Origin: an uncultured Gemmatimonadota bacterium
Lineage (GTDB): Bacteria; JAAXHH01
Direction of reading: 5' to 3'
Assembly: GCA_951812955.1 (NCBI GenBank)
Contig: OX638340.1
Coordinates: 1,600,001 to 1,664,000, forward strand
DNA length: 64,000 nt
The notes under the pieces are model-generated. The model worked only from the letters and a program-made list of their open reading frames with translations, was not told the origin of the DNA and made no database searches. Positions 5,420-45,894 of this stretch are shown in pieces. Position 1 is the stretch's first letter. Every line of letters begins with the position of its first letter. A program made the position numbers and the translations under genes.

Positions 5420-5474
5420 GGGTCAGGTAAGACTCCGGATGTCATGGGTCATGGGACGTGTCTGCACGGCGGGC

Positions 5475-7199
5475 CTATGAGAGGCTTCGCTGGGCCGTGC
5501 CACGGGAGAAGTAGTTGGAACCCAGTAGCACGACGGACACGAGCAGCAGGAGCAGGACGGCGTAGGCCGCGGCGCTGCCGATGTTGAACTGGCGCAGGTG
5601 GGACAGAATCTCCATGGCGATTGGACGGTTGTCGTAGACGTACAGGAGGATGGACGCCACGAATTCGCCCAGGGCGGTGACAAAGGCAAGCAGTGTGCCG
5701 GCGAGCACGCCGGGTCCGATGAGCGGCAGGGTGACGCGGCGGAAGGCGTAGAACCACCCCGCGCCGAGGTTGCGCGCCGCTTCTTCCAGGGAGTCGTCCA
5801 GCTGTCTGAAGGCCGCCGCTGAAGCCCGGAACACGATGGGCAGGTGGCGGACGAAATAGGCGATGGGCAACAGCCAGAATGAGCCCACGAGCACCTGGCC
5901 GAAGCTGAAGGGCGTGCCCTGGCTGAAGGCGACGATCAGGTTGATGGCCACCACGGTGCCGGGCAGCGCCCAGGGCACCATCACGAGGGCGTCGAGCAGT
6001 TTGCGGCCCCGGAATGCGCCCTTCACCACCAGGTAGGCCGCGCTGACCCCTATGGCCACGTCGGCCGCCGTGGAAATCACCGCCATGTTCACACTGTTCC
6101 GGATCGGTTCCCAGAAGGTGGGATCCTGGAAAAGCCTGCCGTAGTTGTCCGATGTATATACCTGGGGCAGAATCTGGTGCGTCCACGTACCATCCTGTAC
6201 GAAGGAAAGCAGGAGGATGGTCAGATGGGGCAGCAGGAGCACGATCACCATGGCGATACCGGCACCACCCGCGAGCAGGCGCGCCCAGCGCCCGCGTATC
6301 TCGCGCCGAAGAACAGCCGTGCCCTTGGTGCTCATGGTGTATTGCCGGCGCCCCTCGTAGTGGCGCATCCAGAAGAGAAAGGCGATGGAGAAAGCGGAGA
6401 GGACCACGGTCTGCGTGACAGCCATGGCCATGTCGCCGTTCAGTTTGGACGTGTAGATGTTGAGGCTGAGAAAACGGAATCCCCCGGCGAAGATGAACGG
6501 CGCGCTGAAGGAGTTCATGGACGTCATGAAGACCAGGAGCGTGGCGCCCACCAGCGCCGGCGTCAGCAGGGGCAGGGTGACGGATCGGAAACTGAACCAG
6601 GACGACGCGCCCAGGTTGCGGGCCGCCTCCATGACCGCCGGATCGATGCCTCTCAGCGCGGCCGAAGTGAACAGGTAGAAGAAGACGTACATCGTATAAC
6701 CGTGCACGAGCAGCACGGCCCACACCCCGTTCAGCGAGAAGGGCGGCCGTTCCAGGCCAAGGGCCGCCTGGATGAGTCGCGGGACCATACCGCTTTCGCT
6801 GTAGAGAAAGAGGAATGCGAGCACACCCACCAGGGGCGGCAGGACGATAGGCAGCGTGGCCAGCGCCGAGAAGACGGACCGGCCCGGAAAGTCGTAGTGG
6901 GTGAAGATGAGGGCCAGGGGCACGCCGATCAGCGCCGAGAGCAGCACGCTCCCCACGGAGACCATGACACTGTTGAAGAGACCCTCCATGTAGGAGGGGT
7001 ATTCGGGATCGAAAAACTCGCCGTAATTGCCGAAGCCGAACTGTCCCTCGCGGAACAGGCTCTCCCAGAGCACAAGTGCGGCGGGATAGACGACGTAGCC
7101 GAGGAGGATGAATCCCAGCAGGATGAATACGAAGGTCCGGGGCTGGCGAAGGGCGGTGAGTAGGGCACCGGGCTGGCGGAGGGTGGCGGGCTGGGTCAT
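5475..7199 (-). CDS. ABC transporter permease, fused double-domain (Fe3+/thiamine FbpB/ThiP type)
   Basis: 574 aa with two tandem TMDs, each with an EAA-like loop (EAARNLGAS... twice). Confidence 0.85.
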   Translation of the reverse strand: MTQPATLRQPGALLTALRQPRTFVFILLGFILLGYVVYPAALVLWESLFREGQFGFGNYGEFFDPEYPSYMEGLFNSVMVSVGSVLLSALIGVPLALIFTHYDFPGRSVFSALATLPIVLPPLVGVLAFLFLYSESGMVPRLIQAALGLERPPFSLNGVWAVLLVHGYTMYVFFYLFTSAALRGIDPAVMEAARNLGASSWFSFRSVTLPLLTPALVGATLLVFMTSMNSFSAPFIFAGGFRFLSLNIYTSKLNGDMAMAVTQTVVLSAFSIAFLFWMRHYEGRRQYTMSTKGTAVLRREIRGRWARLLAGGAGIAMVIVLLLPHLTILLLSFVQDGTWTHQILPQVYTSDNYGRLFQDPTFWEPIRNSVNMAVISTAADVAIGVSAAYLVVKGAFRGRKLLDALVMVPWALPGTVVAINLIVAFSQGTPFSFGQVLVGSFWLLPIAYFVRHLPIVFRASAAAFRQLDDSLEEAARNLGAGWFYAFRRVTLPLIGPGVLAGTLLAFVTALGEFVASILLYVYDNRPIAMEILSHLRQFNIGSAAAYAVLLLLLVSVVLLGSNYFSRGTAQRSLS

Positions 7200-7207
7200 G
7201 ATCCGGT

Positions 7208-8329
7208 TCAGTCCCCCAGGATGACCGCCTGGTCACCAGGGATGTGGACGCGCACCGTATCGCCCGGCTGACTTGATGCCATTGGAACTACCGCATTCTC
7301 GACGACCTGGATGGGCACGCCCCCGGCATCGATGGTGAACTCGACAGTCGCGCCTTTGAAACGCCGAGTGGAAACGATACCAGCAATGGTGCTTTCCGCG
7401 TCATCGCCGGTCAACCGTGCGGCCTGGGGATGCAGAGCCAGGTGAACGGCGCCTTCGGCGTGTTTGGCGCTTTCTGCCGATTCGGCCTCTGCGGACGGCG
7501 AGGACGGCGCACCTTCATCGGCCGGCGTGGCCGGCGCGGGCAGCGGGACGGTCAGTCCGCTTTCATGTCGGAATACGGTACCGCCCCTTTCGGACGAGAC
7601 CACGCCCTCCCACAGGTTCATGTTGCCCATGAAGGCGGCCACGAAGCGGTTGGCCGGCCTGCGATAAATCACCTCCGGCCGGTCCAGCTGCCGGCACTCG
7701 CCCTCCTCCATCACCGCGATCCGATCGGAAACGGCCAGCGCTTCCTCCTGGTCGTGGGTGACGTAAACGGCCGTGATGCCCAGTTTCGTCTGCAGCTCCC
7801 GGATCTGGTCCCGCGTCTCCTCACGCAACTTGGTATCCAGGTTGGACAGGGGTTCGTCGAGCAGCAACAGGTCGGGTTCGATGACCACGGCCCGGGCAAG
7901 GGCCACCCGCTGCTGCTGTCCGCCCGACAACTGGGGTACGGGACGCCTTTCCAGCCCGGTCAGCCCCACCAGGTCGAGCGCCCGCGCCACACGGTCGGCT
8001 ATCTCGGGTCCGGCCACCTTCCGGGTGCGCAGACCAAAGGCCACGTTCTCGAAAACGGTCATATGGGGGAAGAGGGCGTAGTTCTGGAAGACCATCCCGG
8101 TGTTGCGCCGGTGGGCGGGTAGACTGGTGACGTCCTGGCCGTCGAAGTGTACCGCGCCGGACGTGGGGAAGATGAACCCGGCGATCATGCGGAGTATGGT
8201 GGTCTTCCCGCAGCCACTCGGTCCCAGCAGGCTGAAGAACTCACCGTCGGCGACGGTCAGGCTGATGCCCTTGACGACCGGGGTGTCGTCGAAATGCTTG
8301 GTGAGGCGATCGAGGGTGACCTGGGCCAT
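7208..8329 (-). CDS. ABC transporter ATP-binding protein (FbpC/PotA-like) with C-terminal regulatory/TOBE-like domain
   Basis: Walker [10 protein letters not shown], signature LSGGQQQRV, Walker B LLLLDEP. Confidence 0.9.
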   Translation of the reverse strand: MAQVTLDRLTKHFDDTPVVKGISLTVADGEFFSLLGPSGCGKTTILRMIAGFIFPTSGAVHFDGQDVTSLPAHRRNTGMVFQNYALFPHMTVFENVAFGLRTRKVAGPEIADRVARALDLVGLTGLERRPVPQLSGGQQQRVALARAVVIEPDLLLLDEPLSNLDTKLREETRDQIRELQTKLGITAVYVTHDQEEALAVSDRIAVMEEGECRQLDRPEVIYRRPANRFVAAFMGNMNLWEGVVSSERGGTVFRHESGLTVPLPAPATPADEGAPSSPSAEAESAESAKHAEGAVHLALHPQAARLTGDDAESTIAGIVSTRRFKGATVEFTIDAGGVPIQVVENAVVPMASSQPGDTVRVHIPGDQAVILGD

Positions 8330-8371
8330 GGGCGTATATCGTTAGGGAACCGTTGCGGAAGGCGAAAGGAC

Positions 8372-9403
8372 TTAACCCCGGTCCTTGATGTTGTCGTCCC
8401 AGTACTTCATCCAGGTCCTTGACTGTTCGGAGAATACCTTCCAGTCGATGTCGAAGGGAGCGACGGAAAGATCGGCCATCCACGAGGGGAGAAGTTCCCT
8501 GGGTATGTCGCCGCGGGTCGGGATCCGGTAATACTCGGTGGCCTGCACGACCGTGTGGTCGACATTGGTCACGAATTCGTAGAACAGCCGGGCGTCGTTC
8601 GGATTCTTGCTGTTGGCGATGAGCGCGATGCCGTCGGTCAGCACCGGCGCGCCGCTGGCCGGCACCACGAAATCGAAGGGATAGTCGTACCGGTCCACCT
8701 GCAGCATGATGTCGCTCATGAGCCAGATGGAAACCAGCCCTTCCTTCCGGGCGAGCTTCTGGAACATCATGTTCGGGTCGGCGGCGTAATCCTTCGTGTT
8801 GGCGTCGAGCCGCGTGAGCCATTCATACCCCGCGTCGGGCAGGCCGGAATCCCGGTACGTGCGCCAGATCATCCCCGAGTATACCGTCCGCATCGTGCCC
8901 GAAGCCAGGGGGTAACGGATCACGATCAGGTCCCGCCACTTCGGATCGAGGAGTTCGTCCCAGTCCCGGGGCGCCGTTTCACTGGTCAGCTCGAGATTGT
9001 TGAAGGCGATTACGGGAATCAGCTGCGCCGTGCCGTACCAGTGGTCTTCCTCGTCCCGGAACTCAGGGAGCACGGCTTCCGCCCAGGTAGGCCGGTAGGG
9101 ACTGAGCAGGCCCTCGTCGGCTGCCTGGATGAAGTTGGTCGCCGGCGCGCCCCACCAGACGTCTCCCTGGGGATTGGCCCGTTCGGAGCGTACCCGGTCG
9201 AGCACGTCCTGCGAACCCATGTCGAGCCAGCGGATGTCGACATCCGGATGCGCGGCCTCGAAGCGTTTTTCGAACTCGGGCAGGATCGGTTTTCCGTGGG
9301 GAGAATAGACCGTCACGATCCGTTTGTCGGGATCGCCGCCGGTGCAGCCCATCGCCAGGACGGCCACGCACAGTGCGATCGTTGACCATTTCAAGTGTGT
9401 CAT
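8372..9403 (-). CDS. ABC transporter periplasmic substrate-binding lipoprotein (Fe3+/thiamine-type SBP)
   Basis: Lipoprotein signal MTHLKWSTIALCVAVLAMGC. The track ORF extends to 9505, but the Met at 9403 gives a canonical signal peptide. SBP fold and position in the operon support the call. Confidence 0.8.
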   Translation of the reverse strand: MTHLKWSTIALCVAVLAMGCTGGDPDKRIVTVYSPHGKPILPEFEKRFEAAHPDVDIRWLDMGSQDVLDRVRSERANPQGDVWWGAPATNFIQAADEGLLSPYRPTWAEAVLPEFRDEEDHWYGTAQLIPVIAFNNLELTSETAPRDWDELLDPKWRDLIVIRYPLASGTMRTVYSGMIWRTYRDSGLPDAGYEWLTRLDANTKDYAADPNMMFQKLARKEGLVSIWLMSDIMLQVDRYDYPFDFVVPASGAPVLTDGIALIANSKNPNDARLFYEFVTNVDHTVVQATEYYRIPTRGDIPRELLPSWMADLSVAPFDIDWKVFSEQSRTWMKYWDDNIKDRG

Positions 9404-9595
9404 GAACCCATCCCGCGAACGTGCCAATACCGATTCAGGAGCCCAGCCACGGCGCCGCGTATTGACGTGCAAGCGCCAGCGCAAGGCGTGGCTAGATATT
9501 ACCACGAAGCGGAAAGGGTGTCAACGCGGATTTGACGACAGGTCCGGTGGAATCGTGCCACGAAACCACGGGGCGCCGGGATCCCGCCGTATGGA

Positions 9596-10378
9596 TCAGG
9601 CAAGCCGGACTACCTCGGCCTTCGACCGGAATAGTTCCCCGCAGTAGATCCCTTCAAATGCCGAACCGCGTACGGTCTCGACGATACGGCGGGCCAGCGC
9701 GCGGCCGTCCTCGTCACCGGCACAGGAAAGATACAGGGATAGGGGAACGGATTCCGGGAAGGCGCGCTGGTACGCGTCGGGGTGACTGACCACCCCTGCG
9801 ATCACTTCCGGCGTTACGGGTTCGCCCTGTGCCAACCCGGTCAACCTGGCTACGCGCTCCGGGCGGTGCACCTGCCGGTCGTTCAGGAGGATGCCAACGG
9901 ACTTCAGGCTGGCGACGACTACGCCGCGGGTCGTCCCCGCCGGCACCACGGGCTCGTGGTCTCCCGGCGCCTTAAACAACCTCGCTCGGGCGCCGTCGGC
10001 CTTCATCAGCAGCAGGTCGGGCGCGCAGATCTTCCGCAAAGTGTCCAGTTCCTCCGTTTCCAGGCCCTTGAGCTTATCGGGCCTGGGCCGGGATCGGAGG
10101 ACCGTCAAGTGCCGGCGCGTTTTCAGTTCGCGGGGAAGGATCTCGGGCCAGTCCGGCGTCTCGCCGGTCACGTAGAACCCGCGGGTCTGCTTCGACGTGG
10201 GGGGATGGAGATGGGTCGTGGACGTGGTGATCACGGCGTAACCCCGGTCGACGGCTTCGCCCGCCAGCCGGTACATCAGCGTGGCCTTGCCGCCGCTGCC
10301 CACGATGGCTACGGCCTCTCCCCGGCTGATACAGAACATGTCCAGATAAGGCGTTTCCGGCGAACGACCGCTCACCAT
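9596..10378 (-). CDS. YqeC-like P-loop protein (selenium-dependent molybdenum hydroxylase accessory protein family)
   Basis: Blocks AIVGSGGKATL, TTSTTHLHPP and KADGARARLFKAPGDHEPVVP match the YqeC (TIGR03172-type) pattern from memory. Overlaps the rhomboid gene by 7 nt. Confidence 0.5.
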   Translation of the reverse strand: MVSGRSPETPYLDMFCISRGEAVAIVGSGGKATLMYRLAGEAVDRGYAVITTSTTHLHPPTSKQTRGFYVTGETPDWPEILPRELKTRRHLTVLRSRPRPDKLKGLETEELDTLRKICAPDLLLMKADGARARLFKAPGDHEPVVPAGTTRGVVVASLKSVGILLNDRQVHRPERVARLTGLAQGEPVTPEVIAGVVSHPDAYQRAFPESVPLSLYLSCAGDEDGRALARRIVETVRGSAFEGIYCGELFRSKAEVVRLA

Positions 10379-11094
10379 TCACCCCGCGGATTGATGTGGA
10401 TCGTTCGGGGCAGGTTCTTCAGGAAGCGCCGCACGAGGGCCATGCCCACGAGGAATCCGCCGATGTGCGCGTACCAGGCCACGCCGTCGCTGCCGATGCC
10501 CAGAATCTGCCGCAGGAACCAGATCCCAAGGATGATGACTGCGGGCACGTGGATAATCTGGATGAAGATGAACAGCAGGATGAAGGTCTTGATGTAGGCC
10601 CGAGGGTACAGGATGAAATAGGCGCCCAGGACGCCCGCGATGGCGCCGCTGGCGCCGATCATGGGAATGGCGGAATCGGGCTCGGAGATCACGTGCACCA
10701 GGGTGGCGCAGAGGCCAGTCAGTATATAGAAGAGCAGGAAGCGGCCCGAACCCATGGCGCTTTCCACGCTGTTGCCGAAGATCCACAGGTATAGCATGTT
10801 GCCGGCGAGATGCATGAAACCCCCGTGAACGAACATGGCCGTGAACAGCGTCAGGGGGAAGGGCACCAGGGCGTCGGGGTAATGCAGGGAGGTACCCGGA
10901 ATGGGAATGACGTCCCGGTCGACGAAACGGGTCAGTTCAAAGGGTATGGCCGCCGTCTTGAAAATGAATATCTGCTCACCCACCGGTCCCAGGACAAACT
11001 GGAATAGAAAGACCGCCGCGTTGGCGGCGAGCAGCGCGTAGGTGATAACGGGCCGGGAGAATGACGGGCTTTCAGCCTGGAGCGGTAGGAGCAT
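10372..11094 (-). CDS. Rhomboid-family intramembrane serine protease
   Basis: Catalytic GASGAIAG (GxSG) and AHIGGF (His) motifs, with 6 TM helices. Confidence 0.9.
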   Translation of the reverse strand: MLLPLQAESPSFSRPVITYALLAANAAVFLFQFVLGPVGEQIFIFKTAAIPFELTRFVDRDVIPIPGTSLHYPDALVPFPLTLFTAMFVHGGFMHLAGNMLYLWIFGNSVESAMGSGRFLLFYILTGLCATLVHVISEPDSAIPMIGASGAIAGVLGAYFILYPRAYIKTFILLFIFIQIIHVPAVIILGIWFLRQILGIGSDGVAWYAHIGGFLVGMALVRRFLKNLPRTIHINPRGEW

Positions 11095-11156
11095 GGGAAG
11101 GAGGTCGGTTCGTTACCGGCGGGACGGGGATCCATCCGGCCGGAAAAGGTTCCGTC

Positions 11157-25954: not shown

Positions 25955-27706
25955 CTAGTACGGCAAATCGCCCGTCGGGTCATTGGCGTAGCGCGAGGTG
26001 CCCAGCGTGAGACTTGCGCCGGCCCCGGGCGCTAGATCCACCGTCAGGGTCCGGCCGTGCACAGGGTGTTCCTCACCGCCGCCGACCCGGGCGGTCGTCC
26101 ACTGGTGTTCTCCGTACGTTCCACCCTGGACCACGACAGTCCGAGGTTCGAGCTGGTTGAGGTTGACGAGGATGACGCTCGTCTCCTCCGCGGTCAATCC
26201 CTCCACCAGGGCTCCTACGTCGGCAGGCAGTCCCGGCCTGCCCCTGAGCGGGTCGTAGTAGCGCAGGCGGGTGTGTAACGGCTTTCCCACCCGCGGGACC
26301 GTTCCGCCCATGGTCAGTTCGACCAGTGCGTCGACCGTGGCAGGACGAAAGGCGTTCGGGTTGTCCGACAGCCGCGTATCGGGCGTGGTGGGATCGTCGT
26401 ACATGTCCTGCACTTTCCGGCGTACCACGCCGATGTCCCGTTGCAGCGCTTCGACGGGGTAGCCGGGGTTGTTTCCTTCGAGGAAATCAATCCAGGGACA
26501 GGTCACGCGGCCGCGGTCCGCCTCGTCCATGGACCAGTAGTAGATGTCGAGGGCCCCGTCGTCGTAGGGTTCGTTCTCCCACTCGTACCATCCGTCATCG
26601 TTGTGCATGCGGGGATACATCTTCACGCCATCGACCATCCGGCTGTTCGCGTTCACCCCGTCAAGGGTCGTCCGCCAGGGTTCCAGGTAACGCCGGTCGC
26701 CCGTGAGAATGAGCGCGTTGCCGAATCCGTCCAGGCACCGGGCGATCCCGAGGCGGCTCTTGGGTTCACCGGAGTGGGGCGTGATCGTTGTGTGGGCCCA
26801 GCCGTACACGCCGCCCCACCAGCGTCCGCCTGCGGTGCCTCCGATCGTGCCGTCCAGGCCGATGTTCGACGGGATGATCCCGCCGTTCGCCCGGGTCCGC
26901 TCCACCCAGGCGTCGGTGTACTCGAGCAGCCAGTCCTTGTACTTCTTATCCTTTGTATGCACGTAAGCGTTGAAAGCCATGCAGGTGGCGGCCAGGTTAA
27001 GCGGGTGATCCCCGGCCACGTCTTCGTAGCCTATGTAGTGGTCCAGCATGTCCTGGTAGTGCCGCTCCCCGTGAGCCAGAATGAAGCGGCCGTCCTCGAT
27101 GCGGTCGCCGGCCCAGTCGAGGGGCGTGGTCTTGCGCAGGAGCGATCCCCGGCTGCCGTTGAACATGCTGCGGATGAGCCTGTGCTCCGGATCCCAGTTG
27201 GGTACTTCGATCTGACCGGGCAGTTCGTCGCCTTCCATGAAGAATCCCGCGAACCGGCGGAGCCGCTGGATATGGCGGTCGTCACCGGGGTCGCACAACC
27301 CGATGGTCCCCGTCACCGCGTTGCCTTCCTGGTGGTGGGCCCAGTCGAACATCACGGGAAACTCCCGGTAGTACATGCCCTCGCGGGCGAATTCCACCTC
27401 CTCCGTCTTGGCCTCGGTATACTGGCGCAGATGACCTTCCTGGGCCTTCTGGCACATGGCGACCAAGTCGTCCGATCCCCCGATCAGGTAGAGAGCGGGC
27501 ACGTTGGTGAGGTTCTCGATGGCGTCGTCGGGGCCGTCCAGCGCGCCCCAGCGCTCGACGCACAGCAGGTAGCCCCGTTCGTCGAAATACCGGTCGTAGA
27601 ACGCCCGCGTGTGTTCATTGTTGGCCCGGATCAACTCGCGTTCGAGCAGGGCCCATGGCGGCGGCGGCATGGGCGTGGTGATCGATAGGACGGCATGCTG
27701 AGGCAT
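25955..27706 (-). CDS. Hypothetical conserved cytoplasmic protein (583 aa, Trp/Gly/Asp-rich, no signal peptide)
   Basis: Long ORF with good coding character. No family recognised from sequence alone. Confidence 0.5.
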   Translation of the reverse strand: MPQHAVLSITTPMPPPPWALLERELIRANNEHTRAFYDRYFDERGYLLCVERWGALDGPDDAIENLTNVPALYLIGGSDDLVAMCQKAQEGHLRQYTEAKTEEVEFAREGMYYREFPVMFDWAHHQEGNAVTGTIGLCDPGDDRHIQRLRRFAGFFMEGDELPGQIEVPNWDPEHRLIRSMFNGSRGSLLRKTTPLDWAGDRIEDGRFILAHGERHYQDMLDHYIGYEDVAGDHPLNLAATCMAFNAYVHTKDKKYKDWLLEYTDAWVERTRANGGIIPSNIGLDGTIGGTAGGRWWGGVYGWAHTTITPHSGEPKSRLGIARCLDGFGNALILTGDRRYLEPWRTTLDGVNANSRMVDGVKMYPRMHNDDGWYEWENEPYDDGALDIYYWSMDEADRGRVTCPWIDFLEGNNPGYPVEALQRDIGVVRRKVQDMYDDPTTPDTRLSDNPNAFRPATVDALVELTMGGTVPRVGKPLHTRLRYYDPLRGRPGLPADVGALVEGLTAEETSVILVNLNQLEPRTVVVQGGTYGEHQWTTARVGGGEEHPVHGRTLTVDLAPGAGASLTLGTSRYANDPTGDLPY

Positions 27707-35614: not shown

Positions 35615-37597
<1,983 letters not shown>

Positions 37598-37608
37598 GGG
37601 GAGCAAAA

Positions 37609-37647
37609 GAAACGCGGGGCTCGATGTGAGTCCCGCGTTTTCTGTTT
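37609..37647 (+). terminator. Rho-independent terminator after dnaK
   Basis: AAACGCGGGGCTC-gatgt-GAGTCCCGCGTTT hairpin followed by TTTCTGTTT. Confidence 0.8.
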
Positions 37648-37680
37648 GGTGGTCTATTTCTCAAGAATTCCAGCGGCCAA

Positions 37681-38229
37681 TCACCCTCCGAGACGAAACG
37701 AAACGCCCAGGTTCGCATACCTCCACAGATCGTTGCTCACGCCAAATGATGCGACAACGCCAAATCGATGCGTGACCCATATCCCACCCCCGATAGACCC
37801 AACAGGGTCAATAGCGGTTGTTTCGTCCTCTAAGTCGAAGACGTCGATATCTCCCCGCTTGATTTCCACACCGAGCAGCCCCTCGACATAGTACTTCCTG
37901 GACTCGCCATAATAAAAACGGACGCCTCCGGATATCGGGATGCCCTGATACGCCGAGTCAATAGGGATCAAATTACCGTCCACATCGAAGACATCTTCCA
38001 CTTTGGAGCCATAGTGATTGAATCCGGCTCTTGCAACCAGATCGAGAGATTCCAAGTTTTCGAGCGAATAGGTAACGGCCACGGAACCACCAAATCCCGT
38101 CCCGTCAGCTAAAATGTCCAATTCTTCCAGGGCGACTGATCTATGTCCTTCAATTTCCAGTGAAACCTGGGCGTGTGTCTTCCCGGCCATAATACAGGGA
38201 ATAAGTAGCAGGAAGAGTAATCGTCGCAT
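37681..38229 (-). CDS. Outer-membrane beta-barrel protein (small OMP, PF13505-like)
   Basis: Signal peptide MRRLLFLLLIPCIMAGKTHA, alternating amphipathic beta-strands, and a C-terminal aromatic-rich strand. Confidence 0.55.
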   Translation of the reverse strand: MRRLLFLLLIPCIMAGKTHAQVSLEIEGHRSVALEELDILADGTGFGGSVAVTYSLENLESLDLVARAGFNHYGSKVEDVFDVDGNLIPIDSAYQGIPISGGVRFYYGESRKYYVEGLLGVEIKRGDIDVFDLEDETTAIDPVGSIGGGIWVTHRFGVVASFGVSNDLWRYANLGVSFRLGG

Positions 38230-38274
38230 GGTTGATTCCTTTATTGGGTGTGCTTCACGTCAATCGGGACCATT

Positions 38275-38727
38275 TCACGCCCCTTCAAGCATCTCCAGGT
38301 CCGCCAGATCTCTCTGCCTGCCTGTCGCCCGTTTGTTCTTGATGAATTGATCGCGTCCGATGTAATGAACTTGGATATCCCCGTATGTACCGCGCACTCG
38401 CCCTTTGTTCGCTTCGCTCCACGAAACGCCCGTCAGTGAGTTTAAGATATCCAGTCGTACTGGAGGCACACCTAATTGTAGTACCGATTCGGCTGTTAAG
38501 AAATCTTCCGCGGTCAGCCCCAGATCACCAAACCCGAATTCATCAAGAACGATGGCCATGCGCTTGGCATTCACAGCGTCCGATTTGATATAGACATCAA
38601 GATCCCCTGTGTATCGAGGCGCCCCGTGAAAGGCCAGGGCATGTCCTCCGACGATCATGTACTCAACGTGATGAGCGTTTAATAACGCGAGCAACGCACT
38701 GAAGTCGGGGTCTGCCTTTATGTCCAT
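38275..38727 (-). CDS. Minimal nucleotidyltransferase (Pol-beta superfamily NTase, possible TA-module component)
   Basis: hGG...x9..DLDV motif (MIVGGHALAFHGAPRYTGDLDVYI). Confidence 0.5.
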   Translation of the reverse strand: MDIKADPDFSALLALLNAHHVEYMIVGGHALAFHGAPRYTGDLDVYIKSDAVNAKRMAIVLDEFGFGDLGLTAEDFLTAESVLQLGVPPVRLDILNSLTGVSWSEANKGRVRGTYGDIQVHYIGRDQFIKNKRATGRQRDLADLEMLEGA

Positions 38728-38954
38728 AGAGCTGGTTTCGGAGGTATTCGACCGCGGCGATCCGTTCTTCCGGCGTTTTGCTCAACCAGTAGGCAAGATC
38801 GTCCGTCGTGGCGGATTTATCGTCCAGGGGTCGTTTTCCTACTTTCTTCTCAATCATGAATCGACCTCCCATTACCGGTGGGTTTACTCAAATTAGCTCA
38901 TGAATCATGAAGTGTCAACCTGATAGAGCGTACGACCAGTGTAGGAGACTTTCG

Positions 38955-38983
38955 TTGACATGCTCAAGAATCCGATGTATTTT
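38955..38983 (+). promoter_or_regulatory. sigma70-like promoter TTGACA-17-TATTTT in the AT-rich region upstream of the RHH/RelE cassette
   Basis: Read directly. A second TTGACA-17-TAATCA lies at 39001-39029. Confidence 0.4.
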
Positions 38984-39039
38984 GATACCTATGCAATCAA
39001 TTGACATTAAACTACTTCTCTTGTAATCAAGGTGCTGCC

Positions 39040-39261
39040 ATGAGTCAAATCACAGCAAGGGTTCCGGACAGCCTCGTCGAAGCACTTGATGCGGCGGCGG
39101 CAGAACTGAAAAGAAGTCGTGCCGCGCTTGTACGTCAAGCGCTTGAGCGATATCTTGAGGACTACGACGACCTCAGCGTAGCAATCGAACGTCTACGCGA
39201 TCCTTCTGATCCCGTGCTCGACTGGGACAAGGTCAGGAATGAGTTACTCGATTCACATTAA
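39040..39261 (+). CDS. Ribbon-helix-helix antitoxin (CopG/RelB-like)
   Basis: MSQITARVPDSLVEALD...RSRAALVRQALERYLEDYDD. The start was chosen at 39040 because the track's TTG start at 39001 coincides with a TTGACA promoter hexamer. Confidence 0.75.
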   Translation: MSQITARVPDSLVEALDAAAAELKRSRAALVRQALERYLEDYDDLSVAIERLRDPSDPVLDWDKVRNELLDSH

Positions 39262-39499
39262 GAAAAGTGCGGCCAAAGAACTGGCGCGTATTGCTTCGAA
39301 CGACCGTGGCCGCGTCATTCGTGCGATCGATCAACTAAAAGACCACCCTTACTCAGGCAGTCCTTTGAAAGGTGAGTTACGCGGCATCCGGCGAATTCGA
39401 GTGGGCGATTACCGTGTGTTGTACGAAGTCGGTGTAGAAGAACTCACCATACTCATAGTACGGGTAGCCACTCGAGAGGAAGTACACCGTCGTGGATGA
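39239..39499 (+). CDS. RelE/ParE-family toxin (type II TA)
   Basis: 86 aa; ...GDYRVLYEVGVEELTILIVRVATREEVHR is the typical RelE/ParE C-terminus. Overlaps the antitoxin by 23 nt. Confidence 0.75.
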   Translation: MSYSIHIKKSAAKELARIASNDRGRVIRAIDQLKDHPYSGSPLKGELRGIRRIRVGDYRVLYEVGVEELTILIVRVATREEVHRRG

Positions 39500-39592
39500 T
39501 CTAACCAGTATCGGTTTAAGAGCCAAAAGATACGCGTTGATTCTGCCGTGGTGGCCATGTAAAATCTTCCTGAATCCAACCCGGGAGGCACC

Positions 39593-42747: not shown

Positions 42748-42819
42748 TTCCTCGGTAGCTCAATGGCAGAGCGGGTGGCTGTTAACCACTAGGTTGTTGG
42801 TTCGAATCCAACCCGAGGA
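42748..42819 (+). tRNA. tRNA-Asn (anticodon GTT)
   Basis: Acceptor TCCTCGG/CCGAGGA, D-arm GCTC/GAGC, anticodon stem GGTGG/CCACT with loop CTGTTAA, T-arm GTTGG-TTCGAAT-CCAAC, discriminator G. Confidence 0.88.
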
Positions 42820-42863
42820 GTAAATCATTCTCCGCAAGTTGTAGAGTCTCAGACGATCAGGAA

Positions 42864-42890
42864 ATACCCTGATCTTCTTACCAAGCCCCA
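42864..42890 (+). terminator. Possible hairpin terminator after tRNA-Asn (GATCAGG-aaatac-CCTGATC followed by TTCTT)
   Basis: 7-bp perfect stem read directly; the T-tract is weak. Confidence 0.35.
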
Positions 42891-42938
42891 CTCACTCTAT
42901 AACTGTTCCCACGATGCTCGCCGCTTCTTAACGCGACC

Positions 42939-45725
42939 TCACTCCTTGTACTGATTCACCACAGGCACCACCGGCACGGTCCTCCTTGCCGCTACCCGCA
43001 CCAACGACGCCAGCCCCGTCGGAGCGTCTTCGCCGACGCTGAACTGATCGACGTCCTCATCTGCACTCCCCACCGGCGATGCAATCCCAGTCTCCGCGTT
43101 CAGTGTGTACAATTTAGCGGTCCATCCGCCGGTCATGTACAACACGCCTCTGTGTGAGGTCAGCCCGGTCGGCAGGTCTTCTCCGACACCGAAGTCAGTC
43201 ACGTCGCCAACGGGTGAGGCGGCTCCCGTGGCAGGATTCAATACGTATAGTCGGGCCGAGTTGTAACCGACCATGAACAGATCGCCCCCGTGGGACGCAA
43301 GACCGAAGGGATGGTTTTCGCCGGCCCCGAACTCCACGGCATTACCGACCGGGGCAGCTTTCCCTGTCACGGTATCCAGCGCGTAAAGTCTGGTATTCGT
43401 CCCGCCGGCCATGTACAGCGTTCCGTTGTGGGACGCCAGACCCATGGGCTGCGATTCGCCGACTCCGAATTCCACGGCGTCCCCGACCTGCGTGGCCACG
43501 CCCGTTTCCGGATCCAGCGTATACAGCGCCGCGTTCCATCCTCCCGTCATGTACAAAACGCCGTGATGCGCGGCCAGTCCGTACGGCTGGTACTCGTCGG
43601 CGTCGAATCGAACGGCCTCTCCCACAGGTTTGGCTTCCCCGGTATTCGGATTCAGTCTATACAACTGGTCGTTGCCTTCACCCACCATGAGTAGACCTTC
43701 GACGAAGCCGGCTTCGTCGCACCGCGATCCCATCCATTCATCCAGGCCATCGACCCAGGCTAGCAAAGCTGGGGTGCTCGGTAAGCACAGGCCGTCGTTC
43801 TCGTGAAAGAGAAAATCGGTGACATCGCTTAGACCCGAGAAAGTCTCGGGTACAGTACCTGTGAACTGATTGTCATGGAGATACATCACCTCCAGGTCGT
43901 CGAGTATTCCCAGTTCAGGTGGAACGGGACCGGATAATTCGTTATCGAAAAGGTACAGCGCTTCGAGATCCTGGAGCCGTCCGAATTCGGCAGGAATAGA
44001 CCCGGACAACTGGTTGTTATGGAGATAAAGAAACTCGAGATTGGCGAGTTGACTCAGTTCTACAGGTATCGGTCCTGTTAGCTGGTTTCCATAGAGACTC
44101 AGCAGGCGCAGCTTGGGTTGATCACCAAAGACTGCCGGGATCTCGCCAGAAAGATTGTTGGAGTTGAGGTACAGAATCTCGAGATTGTGGAACTGACCCA
44201 GTTCGGCAGGAATCGGTCCGGACAGCTGATTCTCATCAAGATCCATACGTTCCAGGTTTTCCAGTTGACCCAATTCAACCGGGATCCCTCCTGACAGTTG
44301 GTTCTGCCACAGGTTCAGAAATTCAAGGCTTTCCAGGTTACCCATCTCCGGCGGGATTGAACCGGTCAGCTTGTTCGTATACAGGTGCATTATTTCCAGA
44401 TTATACAACTGCCCCAGTTCGGCGGGTATCGATCCGGTAAGTTCGTTTCGTTGCAGGCTCATGAACTCGAGATTGGCGAGTTGACCCAGTTCCGGCGGGA
44501 TCGAACCGGTCAGATCATTGCCAGCCAGGTCCAGCCGCTTCAGGCTGGTCAATTGCCCAAGGTCTCCGGGGATCGATTCCGACAGGCTGTTGTTACCGAG
44601 ATTCAACACCTCCAGGTAGGCAAGCGAAGCGAGTTCATCTGGAACGGTTCCGGAGATTTCGTTGGCGCCAAGATCAATGATCCTGAGCTCGTCGAGCTGG
44701 GAAAGTGCGACTGGGATGGCGCCCGATACCTGGTTGTGCGCCAAATCCAGTTCCCTCAGCAGGGACAGATTGACGAGGTTTCCGGGCAACCCGCCCGACA
44801 GGTTGTTCGTCCGCAGTTCAAGCCGTATCACCCGTCCGTTGGCGTCGGTCGTCACGCCGTGCCATTCGGTCAGGGGTTCTTCACTCAGCCAGTTCTCGCT
44901 TTCATTCCAGTTCGAACCATCCAACGCATGGTAGAAATCGACCAGCGTGGTACGTTCGCTTTTATCGATGGCCACCGTTACGGGCACGGTGACCGAAACC
45001 TCGCCGGAGGAAACGGTAACGACCGCGGTACCGCTCCCCAGGGCCGTAATCGTGCCGTCGTTGCTCACGGTTGCCACCGACTCGTCGCTGATTACCCATT
45101 TCACCGCCGTGCCATCGATGACCTGGCCGTTTTCGTCGAGAACGGAGGCCTTAAGACTTACTGACTCGCCGGTCGCGGTCAGCGTTACCGACGGAGGTTC
45201 AACCAATATCGTCCGTGCCGACTGGGATACGGAAACCGTAGACTTTCCCTGTTTCTGTCCCACGGTAGCGGTAATATCAGCCGTACCGTTACTGAGCGCG
45301 GTGACGAGTCCTCCACTGGTCACGGATGCAACCGAAGGATTCCGGCTCGACCAGACTACCTCGTGTCCCGAAATCGTCGCGCCGGTCTCGTCCTGCACCT
45401 GTACGGCAAGTTGCAGGGACTGGCCGATCGCAGTCAGCGTAACCGTGTCAGGAGTCACGACAACGGCAGCCGGACCGGATGACCTGGTGGGACCGTCCTT
45501 GCCGCAGGAGGCCAGCGCAAACAGTGCGAGGAAGCAGAAGAGACGGATCCCATTCCTACGGGTGGAATTCCATCGACCGGTGTTCTTTTTGACCCGTAAC
45601 CTGCTGGCAGATGGAGATGACAGCGATTTGCGACCGCAATGACGGTGAAAATGCATATGAGAATACCTTTTAAAGTTTGGTCTATGATTGGCTGCGCGGG
45701 CGAATCGGGCGCTCGATGTGGACAC
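42939..45725 (-). CDS. Large secreted lipoprotein: 3 x Ig-like (Big_2) domains, about 12 plant-type leucine-rich repeats (LxxLxxLxLxxNxLSGxIP), and a C-terminal array of about 46-aa repeats (YxLNPxTGxAxPVGxAVxFGVGExxPxGLASHxGxLYMxGG)
   Basis: Lipobox ...LFALASCGKDG. The start codon is uncertain (Met at aa 1 or 24 of the track ORF, with a long basic N-region). Repeat architecture read directly from the translation. Confidence 0.75.
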   Translation of the reverse strand: MSTSSARFARAANHRPNFKRYSHMHFHRHCGRKSLSSPSASRLRVKKNTGRWNSTRRNGIRLFCFLALFALASCGKDGPTRSSGPAAVVVTPDTVTLTAIGQSLQLAVQVQDETGATISGHEVVWSSRNPSVASVTSGGLVTALSNGTADITATVGQKQGKSTVSVSQSARTILVEPPSVTLTATGESVSLKASVLDENGQVIDGTAVKWVISDESVATVSNDGTITALGSGTAVVTVSSGEVSVTVPVTVAIDKSERTTLVDFYHALDGSNWNESENWLSEEPLTEWHGVTTDANGRVIRLELRTNNLSGGLPGNLVNLSLLRELDLAHNQVSGAIPVALSQLDELRIIDLGANEISGTVPDELASLAYLEVLNLGNNSLSESIPGDLGQLTSLKRLDLAGNDLTGSIPPELGQLANLEFMSLQRNELTGSIPAELGQLYNLEIMHLYTNKLTGSIPPEMGNLESLEFLNLWQNQLSGGIPVELGQLENLERMDLDENQLSGPIPAELGQFHNLEILYLNSNNLSGEIPAVFGDQPKLRLLSLYGNQLTGPIPVELSQLANLEFLYLHNNQLSGSIPAEFGRLQDLEALYLFDNELSGPVPPELGILDDLEVMYLHDNQFTGTVPETFSGLSDVTDFLFHENDGLCLPSTPALLAWVDGLDEWMGSRCDEAGFVEGLLMVGEGNDQLYRLNPNTGEAKPVGEAVRFDADEYQPYGLAAHHGVLYMTGGWNAALYTLDPETGVATQVGDAVEFGVGESQPMGLASHNGTLYMAGGTNTRLYALDTVTGKAAPVGNAVEFGAGENHPFGLASHGGDLFMVGYNSARLYVLNPATGAASPVGDVTDFGVGEDLPTGLTSHRGVLYMTGGWTAKLYTLNAETGIASPVGSADEDVDQFSVGEDAPTGLASLVRVAARRTVPVVPVVNQYKE

Positions 45726-45894
45726 GATTCCGCCTTTAAATAGGCGGTGTGACCATCGCTAAGCCGACCTGACTAGAAAAAGCGATGCAGACCGTCAGAA
45801 TATAGCACGGATTGTTGTGATTTAAAACTGTTTTAAAATGATTTTTTTGTGACCTATGGCCGGATCCGGATCGCCATATGCCGCCTAAAGTCCA

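Follow-up and report, generated by a model that had tools for sequence, protein, structure and literature searches.

The minus-strand gene at 42939-45725 of the 64-kb stretch of DNA analysed here (the window) encodes a predicted lipoprotein in which two Ig-like domains of the Big_2 type, an array of leucine-rich repeats (LRRs) of the plant-specific type and a C-terminal beta-propeller are joined in one chain. The parts are known, and their combination is probably confined to close relatives, as judged from sequence comparisons; what is unusual is the fusion of LRRs to the propeller, which is restricted to the JAAXHH01-related lineage. Taken alone, the finding amounts to known modules joined in a new way and not to a new mechanism. 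With regard to function, we favor, with modest confidence, a non-enzymatic binding protein with two modules (an adhesin or receptor) that is anchored in the envelope of a JAAXHH01-related diderm and has its target outside the cell. In the arrangement that we propose, an N-terminal lipidated cysteine would be the membrane anchor, the two Big_2 domains would form a stalk carrying a doubly capped solenoid of 14 LRRs, and a five-bladed propeller of the DUF4394/DUF6923 type would sit at the tip. Two recognition surfaces would result: the concave face of the LRRs, which would accommodate a peptide or a protein, and the propeller face, on which five near-identical loops (FGVGE..P) could hold multiple copies of a recurring ligand, for instance a glycan. 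The target could belong to a host, to a different cell or to a particle, and the adhesin or host-interaction role suggested in the initial annotation is plausible.

The initial annotation had described the interval 42748-45725 as a 928-aa lipoprotein with Big_2 domains, LRRs and a C-terminal repeat array, and this was confirmed (the ORF, the lipobox, Big_2, the LRRs and the C-terminal repeats were all found, in the order described). The length given, however, applies only to the longest frame, a 928-aa minus-strand ORF with GTG as its first codon, whereas the likely start, judging from alignments, is the ATG at 45656 (M24). Two observations favor this ATG: the alignments with the two paralogs of the closest relative start at M24, and the frame contains no ATG, GTG or TTG from there to the lipobox. 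The product would then have 905 aa (42942..45656, minus strand), with the stop codon at 42939-42941. A promoter-like site on the minus strand (TTTAAA, 16 nt, TG-TATATT; 45799..45826) lies within the 169-bp gap that follows the Kef-type antiporter gene; it was recognized by its match to the consensus, the count of such sites found being not above that in shuffles. An exact-sequence look-up in a protein cluster collection showed that the window protein is absent from it.

The predicted signal peptide (50 aa; 45504..45656, minus strand), recognized by sequence inspection and conserved in the two tandem paralogs of one of the relatives (L002), consists of a long basic n-region with a conserved T-R-R-N, a hydrophobic stretch and the lipobox LAS|C. 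By inspection, the pattern [LVI][ASTVI][GAS]C is present after the hydrophobic stretch and the positive n-region (...RRNGIRLFCFLALFALAS|C), and the relatives keep the lipobox as LASC or VSSC, in agreement with the lipoprotein signal annotated earlier. The predicted lipidated residue, also from inspection, is Cys74 in the 928-aa numbering used here (codon 45504-45506), and the Pfam family TAT_signal did not match the signal peptide. We infer that the protein is lipidated and exposed at the surface, although a periplasmic orientation is possible too. The window contains an outer-membrane beta-barrel gene, and the envelope is therefore of the diderm type. Behind the anchor, Pfam reported Big_2 (PF02368) in two stretches at 70.7 bits against a gathering threshold of 22.8, which bears out the Ig-like domains of the initial annotation. 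The first domain (aa 88-164; 45234..45464, minus strand) is modelled as a beta-sandwich with a pLDDT of 86-93, and the second (about aa 172-252; 44970..45212, minus strand) is likewise a beta-sandwich in the model; Big_1, at aa 187-264, scored below its cutoff.

The LRR array (aa 298-633; 43827..44834, minus strand) comprises 14 units of exactly 24 residues in an unbroken register, and is modelled with a pLDDT above 95. Its consensus, xLExLxLxxNxLSGxIPxELGxLx, in which N10, G14 and P17 vary little or not at all, has the tandem 24-residue LxxLxLxxNxL plus (S/T)GxIPxxLGxL units that define the plant-specific LRR class. Sequence searches against solved structures returned plant receptor-kinase ectodomains as the top matches, GSO1 (1e-144) and FLS2 (1e-128) being followed by HAESA, PEPR1, ERL1 and BRI1, so that the plant receptor type named in the initial annotation was upheld. 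Its companion statement that such repeats are rare in bacteria was not, since more than 7600 bacterial proteins share this LRR type at E<=1e-30. The array is preceded by an N-terminal cap (aa 256-297, ERTTLVDFYHALDGSNWN...WHGVTTDANG; 44835..44960, minus strand), which forms a helix in the model and within whose counterparts the alignments to ERL1 and PSKR1 begin. This cap has a plant-cap-like sequence pattern without cysteines, and thus is not a cysteine-paired cap; LRRNT_2 (PF08263), the cap family proposed earlier, gave no Pfam match on it at E<=10, and LRR_10 reached just 17.6 bits. The C-terminal cap and linker (aa 634-676, FHENDGLCLP...GSRC; 43698..43826, minus strand) are conserved in relatives and modelled with low confidence, and Cys647 and Cys669 may form a disulfide in this cap. 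The plant LRR receptor kinases resemble the window protein in LRR class, in the pattern of the N-terminal cap and in the 'N.GLC.P' motif common to both C-terminal caps. In contrast to them, the window protein is bacterial, has no transmembrane helix, no kinase and no N-cap cysteine pair, has a predicted lipid anchor and carries a propeller.

Plant LRR receptor ectodomains bind peptides and proteins on their concave face, and because these ectodomains are the closest to the LRRs of the window protein, we regard the concave face as the candidate ligand site. Among three sequences (the window protein and the two L002 tandem paralogs), the highest variability (0.57-0.60) was at LRR positions 8 and 9, which belong to the LxLxxN strand. 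Over the same three sequences, the five concave-face positions varied more than all others pooled (odds ratio 2.5, p=1e-7), while their excess over the other non-scaffold positions alone was not significant (p=0.06). We also considered an LRR effector that is secreted or injected in the way of XopAC, XopL or XopAE of Xanthomonas, as the LRR region drew NCBIfam scores of 112 bits for XopAC, 102 bits for XopAE and 54 bits for XopL. This reading is extremely improbable, given the predicted lipoprotein signal, the Ig-like stalk and the lack of a match to a Fic, E3-ligase or other effector domain. Membership of the three families themselves was rejected, the NCBIfam cutoffs being 450 (XopAC), 600 (XopAE) and 500 (XopL) bits and the matches covering the LRRs alone.

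The C-terminal region (aa 677-907; 43005..43697, minus strand) forms a five-bladed beta-propeller of 46-aa DUF4394/DUF6923-type blades, as indicated by the repeats, Pfam and the model. The repeat period is exactly 46 aa with copies beginning at residues 688, 734, 780, 826 and 872, and the fifth copy is without its last strand; of the five to six repeats counted in the initial annotation, five therefore stand and a sixth does not. The four full repeats share 50-59% pairwise identity, compared to 8% (maximum 14%) in 2000 shuffles. The propeller that had been suspected was obtained with AlphaFold, which folded the repeats into five blades (pLDDT 86, pTM 0.84), with the N-terminal strand LLMVG completing the last blade as a velcro closure. 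The array, described earlier as matching no nameable class, passes the gathering scores of three Pfam families: DUF4394 (PF14339; threshold 29.6 bits, score 47.8 for aa 656-928 alone and 31.0 for the full protein), DUF6923 (PF21959; 31.0 bits against 27 for the C-terminal part alone, a marginal pass) and Kelch_6 (38.2 bits against 25.3). Kelch propellers, however, usually have six (or seven) blades, as opposed to the five of the model, and Kelch structures rank below five-bladed and NHL/YWTD ones in the fold comparison. Neither of the well-known propeller families named in the initial annotation matched by HMM: NHL, with six blades against five here, gave no Pfam match on the array at E<=10, and YVTN and other named propeller repeats likewise gave no HMM match. 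The propeller ends in a tail of 21 aa (LVRVAARRTVPVVPVVNQYKE; 42942..43004, minus strand) that is conserved in relatives and predicted with low confidence.

The C-terminal repeat is matched by 1505 cluster representatives, and a consensus over 1264 family blades reads LYTLD..TG.ATRVG....FGV.E..P.GLASH.GTLYMVG; the loop motif, FGVGE..P in the window protein, is kept across these 1264 blades, and the window array fits the blade consensus. Glycine, proline and hydrophobic residues make up most of the conserved blade positions, and they may be structural rather than ligand-binding. The propeller is the best-conserved part (83-93%), and among the relatives scanned all match DUF6923 with the exception of P0072, which matches DUF4394 only. 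A literature search found no papers on DUF4394 or DUF6923 in the library that it covered, and no solved structure of a member of either family was detected by sequence search. The blades resemble those of NHL/YWTD propellers in Foldseek comparisons, a similarity that is distant and at the level of the blade; TRIM2, TRIM71, the PknD sensor domain and LRP4/LRP6 have six blades versus five here and align with a TM of only about 0.5.

Five blades are also found in bacterial glutaminyl cyclases (3nok, 3mbr), in the calcium-dependent SCAN nucleotidase (2h2n) and in the YjiK C-terminal domain (3qqz), which raises the question of whether the propeller is an enzyme akin to the cyclases or nucleotidases, with the LRRs targeting the substrate. 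We consider this very unlikely. Identity to these proteins is 10-19% with no family HMM match, Glu_cyclase_2 (PF05096) being without a match even at E<=10. Moreover, the blades of the five-bladed enzymes are unlike one another whereas those of the window protein are near-identical, and one consensus in all five blades is unexpected for a single asymmetric active site. The local blade similarity to the non-enzymatic NHL/YWTD binding domains further argues against catalysis. No catalytic family was matched in the domain scans of the protein, and a non-enzymatic role is likely on this basis.

The fusion was evident from both of its halves. Among the more than 7600 LRR relatives, none of the best 120 carries DUF4394/DUF6923 blades; among 166 propeller relatives, LRRs were found only in the window protein and in a fragment of its ortholog. 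The best LRR relatives are Big_2+LRR proteins of 1100-1580 aa, and those with names come from Gemmatimonadota metagenome-assembled genomes (MAGs). As in the window protein, N-terminal Big_2 domains are followed by long 24-residue LSGxIP arrays, with 35-50% identity over 40-70% of the query, but these proteins are longer, and the best 120 are without the propeller. Their names are generic ('leucine-rich repeat domain-containing', 'Ig-like domain-containing'; from Gemmatimonadota and other MAGs), and, judging by the names supplied, none is functionally characterised. Other DUF4394/DUF6923 members stand alone, form multi-propeller giants, or are fused to ankyrin, fibronectin-III (fn3), collagen or RHS modules. 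In the full-length model (pTM 0.60) the placement of the domains relative to one another is uncertain.

The closest full-length relative (77% identity) is encoded by the MAG from which the GTDB placeholder phylum JAAXHH01 takes its name. Part of the JAAXHH01 genomes come from sponge tissue (PMC11382960, PMC13200403), and the phylum has free-living marine and freshwater members too (PMC11382960, 10.64898/2026.01.13.699260). Sponge symbionts are rich in LRR proteins and in further repeat proteins of the eukaryote-like kind, and the LRR-bearing ones, enriched in sponge-associated MAGs, are regarded as mediators of host association (PMC8163846, PMC12993501). The window protein has its LRRs in common with members of this group from symbionts of sponges and corals, but the group is a category set by enrichment, not a family. 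The same architecture would also serve a substrate-capture lipoprotein, which would hold nutrient polymers (glycoproteins, or polysaccharides from algae or a host) at the surface for degradation instead of attaching to a host. A glycan with repeating units would be a good fit for five equivalent loops on the propeller, and in sponges polysaccharide-degrading enzymes are expressed mainly by Latescibacterota, the phylum to which NCBI assigns the MAG of the closest relative (PMC13200403, PMC8163846). However, GTDB places this relative outside Latescibacterota (PMC11382960). In addition, the gene is adjoined by the Kef-type antiporter, tRNA-Asn and DapF genes and not by a glycoside hydrolase, lyase, TonB-dependent transporter or SusD-like gene, and no carbohydrate-binding module was matched in the domain scans. 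Substrate capture thus appears rather unlikely, and attachment or reception through the LRRs and the propeller is the reading that we retain.

The propeller family may extend to phages. One homolog closes a prophage structural module, a place in which tail fibres are commonly encoded, as judged from gene position alone at this one locus. The prophage homolog P0013 had no relatives in the viral contig scans, a viral fold search (BFVD) with the propeller gave generic propeller matches (top TM 0.62, mostly 0.4-0.55), and PHROGs gave a weak match to a family of unknown function. We tentatively raise the possibility that the DUF4394/DUF6923 propeller is a widely exchanged receptor-binding module, perhaps lectin-like with five equivalent sites, and that tail fibres of prophages, giant surface proteins with many propellers and eukaryote-like repeat proteins all employ it. 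In the JAAXHH01 lineage, this module would have been fused to plant-type LRRs as a two-headed recognition protein. Tandem duplication and diversification of the LRR face would have followed, as at a locus for recognizing a host or partner. Should the reading hold, the protein would be a candidate for a role in cell-surface recognition in a candidate phylum for which metagenomes are the only source, and the DUF4394/DUF6923 family, with about 1500 cluster representatives, would gain a testable ligand-binding role. With its compact single propeller (231 residues, confidently modelled), the window protein would be a convenient member for structural work and for glycan- and protein-binding work.

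In all three genomes compared (the window and both relatives found, L001 and L002) the Kef-type antiporter gene immediately precedes the lipoprotein gene, which in both relatives is duplicated in tandem. The window neighbors encode DapF, an OMP, GCS2, the Kef-type antiporter, an NmrA-like protein, a pyrimidine-dimer glycosylase and a TPR protein. The initial annotation had placed the gene immediately downstream of tRNA-Asn(GTT) (42748-42821, plus strand) and had taken the tRNA as a site of island integration. The gene does follow the tRNA, with the stop codon of the ORF 117 bp from the 3' end of the tRNA, but it does so only in plus-strand coordinates; the two are convergent genes that had been joined in one interval, and the tRNA is a neighbor rather than part of the gene. 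A recent horizontal transfer into this site, possibly from a eukaryote, would fit this proximity, the plant-like LRRs and the GC3 of the gene (0.66), at the low end of the window genes (0.66-0.85). The stretch between gene and tRNA also differs among the relatives, with three extra genes in L001 and a helicase gene in L002, while the Kef-type neighbor is kept in both. Island cargo is nevertheless largely refuted. No integrase or recombinase was found near the gene among the window ORFs, and no second copy of the tRNA-Asn 3' end (up to 3 mismatches) was present in the 64-kb window or in L001, the tRNA itself being the sole match. The neighbors are housekeeping genes, and the GC content (0.575 versus 0.60 for the window) and the synonymous-usage distance (0.158, window range 0.086-0.192) do not clearly deviate from the range of such genes, DapF having the same GC3. 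The wide bacterial distribution of the LRR type speaks against this reading too, as do the internal repeats, which are old and diverged (54-64% identity in DNA, with no DNA tandem repeat detected within the gene). Near the tRNA-Asn gene, a promoter-like site at 42696-42724 matches at 11 of 12 positions.

We found that the precursor encoded by a minus-strand gene in the window has a lipobox, a pair of Ig-like domains, a plant-type LRR solenoid with caps, and a propeller of five blades that belongs to a widespread family. The ORF called at 42939..45725 (928 codons, GTG start; residue numbers refer to it) is convergent with a tRNA-Asn(GTT) gene on the plus strand (42748-42821), with 117 bp between the ORF stop codon and the tRNA 3' end. 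The ORF call and Pfam confirmed the initial annotation of a 928-aa ORF with Big_2 domains, plant-type LRRs and 46-aa repeats. Since no further in-frame ATG, GTG or TTG occurs before the lipobox and both paralogs from the closest relative align from Met24, the ATG at 45656 is the likely start, which would give a protein of 905 aa. A sigma-70-like site, a consensus match only, lies at 45826-45799 on the minus strand in the 169-bp upstream gap. The N-terminus, MHFHRHCGRKSLSSPSASRLRVKKNTGRWNSTRRNGIRLFCFLALFALAS followed by CGKD, consists of a long basic n-region, a hydrophobic stretch and the lipobox LASC, which is kept in relatives as LASC or VSSC. The signal peptide is unusually long (50 aa), and a twin-arginine motif (S/T-T-R-R-N; 45546-45557, minus strand) directly before its hydrophobic stretch is kept in 3 of 3 full-length proteins. 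This motif could direct Tat-dependent lipoprotein export; the TAT_signal HMM did not match the signal peptide.

Pfam matched Big_2 in two stretches (70.7 bits) and LRR_1, LRR_8 and LRR_4 with E-values down to 2e-45. The LRR region (aa 298-633) contains 14 units of exactly 24 residues in unbroken register. Asn10 is invariant across all 14 units of the window protein, Gly14 is present in 13 and Pro17 in all 14, and no unit differs at Gly14 or Pro17 among the three sequences compared. The best sequence matches among solved structures were the ectodomains of plant LRR receptor kinases, GSO1 (1e-144) and FLS2 (1e-128), followed by HAESA, RGFR, MIK2, PEPR1, ERL1 and BRI1, with Leptospira LRR proteins ranking below them. 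The LRRs of the window protein are thus of the plant-specific class, one of the eight into which LRRs are divided (PMC5976695). The N-terminal cap follows a plant-like pattern (…NW…W.GV.….GRV..L.L), yet it lacks cysteines, and Pfam gave no LRRNT_2 match to it; the C-terminal cap (FHENDGLCLP…GSRC) has two conserved cysteines, C647 and C669. The full-length AlphaFold model (pLDDT 82, pTM 0.60) bears out the two beta-sandwiches, the cap helix and the LRR solenoid (solenoid pLDDT above 95), and leaves the relative domain positions unfixed. More than 7600 proteins matched the full-length query at E<=1e-30. The best of them are Big_2+LRR proteins of 1100-1580 aa, and those with names come from Gemmatimonadota MAGs; plant-type LRRs combined with Big_2 are therefore common in bacteria, contrary to the rarity first supposed for this LRR type.

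The C-terminal repeat copies begin at aa 688, 734, 780, 826 and 872, exactly 46 residues apart, so that the "5-6 repeats" originally counted are five, with no sixth. Pairwise identity among the four full copies was 50-59%, compared with 8% (maximum 14%) for shuffled sequence. The coding DNA of the copies has diverged to 54-64% identity, and Tandem Repeats Finder reported nothing for the array, indicating that the array is old. When aa 656-928 were scanned alone, the gathering scores of DUF4394 (47.8 vs 29.6), Kelch_6 (38.2 vs 25.3) and DUF6923 (31.0 vs 27) were passed. Judged by these profile scores, the repeat, which had been taken as unclassified, is a classified one, within families of no known function; the literature search found no paper mentioning DUF4394 or DUF6923. 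AlphaFold2, run on aa 640-928 with an alignment of 28 sequences, predicted 20 strands forming five four-stranded blades (pLDDT 86, pTM 0.84), bearing out the earlier suggestion of a beta-propeller. In the model, the strand LLMVG (aa 678-682), ahead of the first repeat, fills the fourth-strand gap of the truncated fifth repeat and thus completes the fifth blade as a predicted velcro closure. Foldseek, whose ranking gives weight to local similarity, placed NHL domains (TRIM2 and TRIM71), the PknD-derived Pizza designs and the LRP4 YWTD domain at the top, with E-values of ~1e-10 and TM of only ~0.5. The family profile searched against solved structures gave only weak NHL and Kelch sequence matches, the best being SOQ1 at 7e-8. 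We read the modelled blades as NHL/YWTD-type, set in a five-bladed ring.

An exhaustive phmmer search of 1.84 billion cluster representatives with the propeller as query gave 1505 matches at E<=1e-3, 546 at E<=1e-10 and 199 at E<=1e-30, and this DUF4394/DUF6923 family is the most useful lead from the analysis. Many of the matches are to giant proteins (2000-7800 aa), in which the query matched as many as 18 stretches, and in sampled matches DUF4394 and/or DUF6923 lie beside ankyrin, fibronectin-III, collagen or RHS repeats. A blade HMM run over the retrieved proteins found 1264 blades (consensus LYTLD..TG.ATRVG....FGV.E..P.GLASH.GTLYMVG); 10, 15 and 30 blades per protein were recurrent, and other counts were also common. 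The retrieved giants P0030-P0064 (2000-7800 aa) hold many propeller copies, with blade counts often multiples of five; about 17-33 blades were detected in P0030-P0032, P0034, P0035, P0037 and P0039, and 10 in P0055 (7842 aa). A smaller protein with the same blades, P0013 (426 aa), is encoded by the last gene of the structural module of a prophage (L003 1815-14116, within a 1.38-Mb metagenome contig), where a tail fibre is usually encoded. Upstream of it are a major head protein (phrog_1357, 2.8e-57) and then a weakly tail-like He_PIG protein, and downstream is a CI-like repressor. The N-terminal domain of P0013 is common to three other retrieved proteins, P0009, P0017 and P0018. Blades were absent from all of the 120 best LRR relatives, and among the 166 proteins that have two or more blades, LRRs were found only in the window protein and in P0005, a fragment of its ortholog. 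By these sequence comparisons, the LRR-propeller fusion is lineage-specific. The protein brings three known types of module together in a combination that is new and restricted to one lineage; one of the three, DUF4394/DUF6923, has no known function.

Full-length relatives were found at two places, L002 (JAAXHH010000147.1, 'Candidatus Latescibacterota bacterium isolate Plut_88884') and L001, an ENA metagenome contig with ~80% nucleotide identity. The window has one gene copy and each of these contigs has two in tandem. Those in L002 (7326-12703; copies A and B) are intact paralogs of 887 and 905 aa with 73% and 77% identity, the first having one LRR fewer; those in L001 (about 5624-11083) are broken by frameshifts over several frames (5624-11107) in an 8x assembly, for which assembly errors are more likely than pseudogenes. 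Compared with the L002 copies, the window protein is mosaic: it is nearer to B over most of the LRRs and nearer to A in the propeller and where the LRRs end. The A-B identity is similar to that of the window protein with either copy. This pattern fits gene conversion, or deletion between tandem copies. Among these three proteins, conservation is highest in the propeller (83-93%) and lowest in the second Ig domain and the LRRs. The most variable positions of the LRR unit are 8 and 9, the x residues of LxLxxN (0.57-0.60, three sequences). The five concave positions were more variable than all others pooled (odds ratio 2.5, p=1e-7), and their difference from other non-scaffold positions was not significant (p=0.06); from three sequences, this is no more than a hint of excess variability on the concave face.

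The position of the gene beside tRNA-Asn had been pointed out as typical of island integration. The window is ordinary chromosome, with genes for GluRS, UvrB, an ammonium transporter, DnaK, GCS2, an outer-membrane barrel, DapF, a Kef-type antiporter, GltB and GltD, and it contains no integrase. A search for the tRNA-Asn 3' end (22 bases, up to 3 mismatches allowed) found it once in the window and once in L001, with no second copy. The GC3 of the gene (0.66) is at the low end of the window range (0.66-0.85) and the same as that of DapF, and its synonymous-usage distance (0.158) is inside the window range (0.086-0.192). The Kef-type gene is the immediate upstream neighbour of the gene, with both on one strand, in all three genomes (window, L001 and L002). 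On these grounds, the reading of the gene as island cargo is unsupported. Only the stretch between gene and tRNA varies among the genomes, and no att-like repeat was found. The stretch is empty in the window (42822-42938); in L001 (11179-13715, before tRNA-Asn and DapF) it holds genes for a hypothetical protein, a zinc-type dehydrogenase fragment (ADH_zinc_N) and an HTH_3 protein, and in L002 (12749-15676, before the contig end) a UvrD/helicase-IV-like gene with a topoisomerase zinc ribbon.

After lipidation, the protein would be held on a membrane of a diderm envelope, which the outer-membrane protein gene in the window points to. The Ig domains may act as a spacer, and ligands would bind to the concave side of the LRR solenoid and to the propeller face. 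The near-identical blades, each with a conserved FGVxE..P loop, suggest five equivalent propeller sites, by analogy with multivalent lectin propellers, whose sites are equivalent. A binding role of the propeller fits with its fusion to other adhesive or eukaryote-like modules, its presence in giant surface-type proteins and its prophage tail-fibre position. We also considered an enzymatic propeller; profile scans of the protein matched no catalytic families. Nutrient capture by the protein and its delivery as an injected effector were considered as further rival readings. Sponge symbionts are enriched in eukaryote-like repeat proteins, LRRs included (PMC8163846, PMC12993501), which makes a host target of the lipoprotein plausible.

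JAAXHH01 is a GTDB placeholder phylum of 27 genomes with a GC of 51-63%, obtained from freshwater, marine water, sponge tissue and hypoxic seawater (PMC11382960), and the window GC (0.60) is inside this range. One JAAXHH01 MAG came from a deep-sea sponge (PMC13200403) and another from deep-sea water (10.64898/2026.01.13.699260). NCBI labels JAAXHH01 as Candidatus Latescibacterota, and in GTDB it is the type of a separate placeholder phylum with the proposed name 'Candidatus Ifutiota'; the organism of the window probably belongs to this lineage. Elsewhere in the window, a low-GC stretch (37500-39500; 0.50-0.52 vs 0.60 for the window) directly after DnaK contains small minus-strand ORFs at 37681-38229 and 38275-38727. 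Two large ORFs (5449-7236 and 25955-27706, minus strand; 595 and 583 aa) had no Pfam match at E<=1e-5. Two tRNA-Ser genes (TGA and GCT; 1217-1418), 23 bp apart, lie directly upstream of the glutamyl-tRNA synthetase gene.
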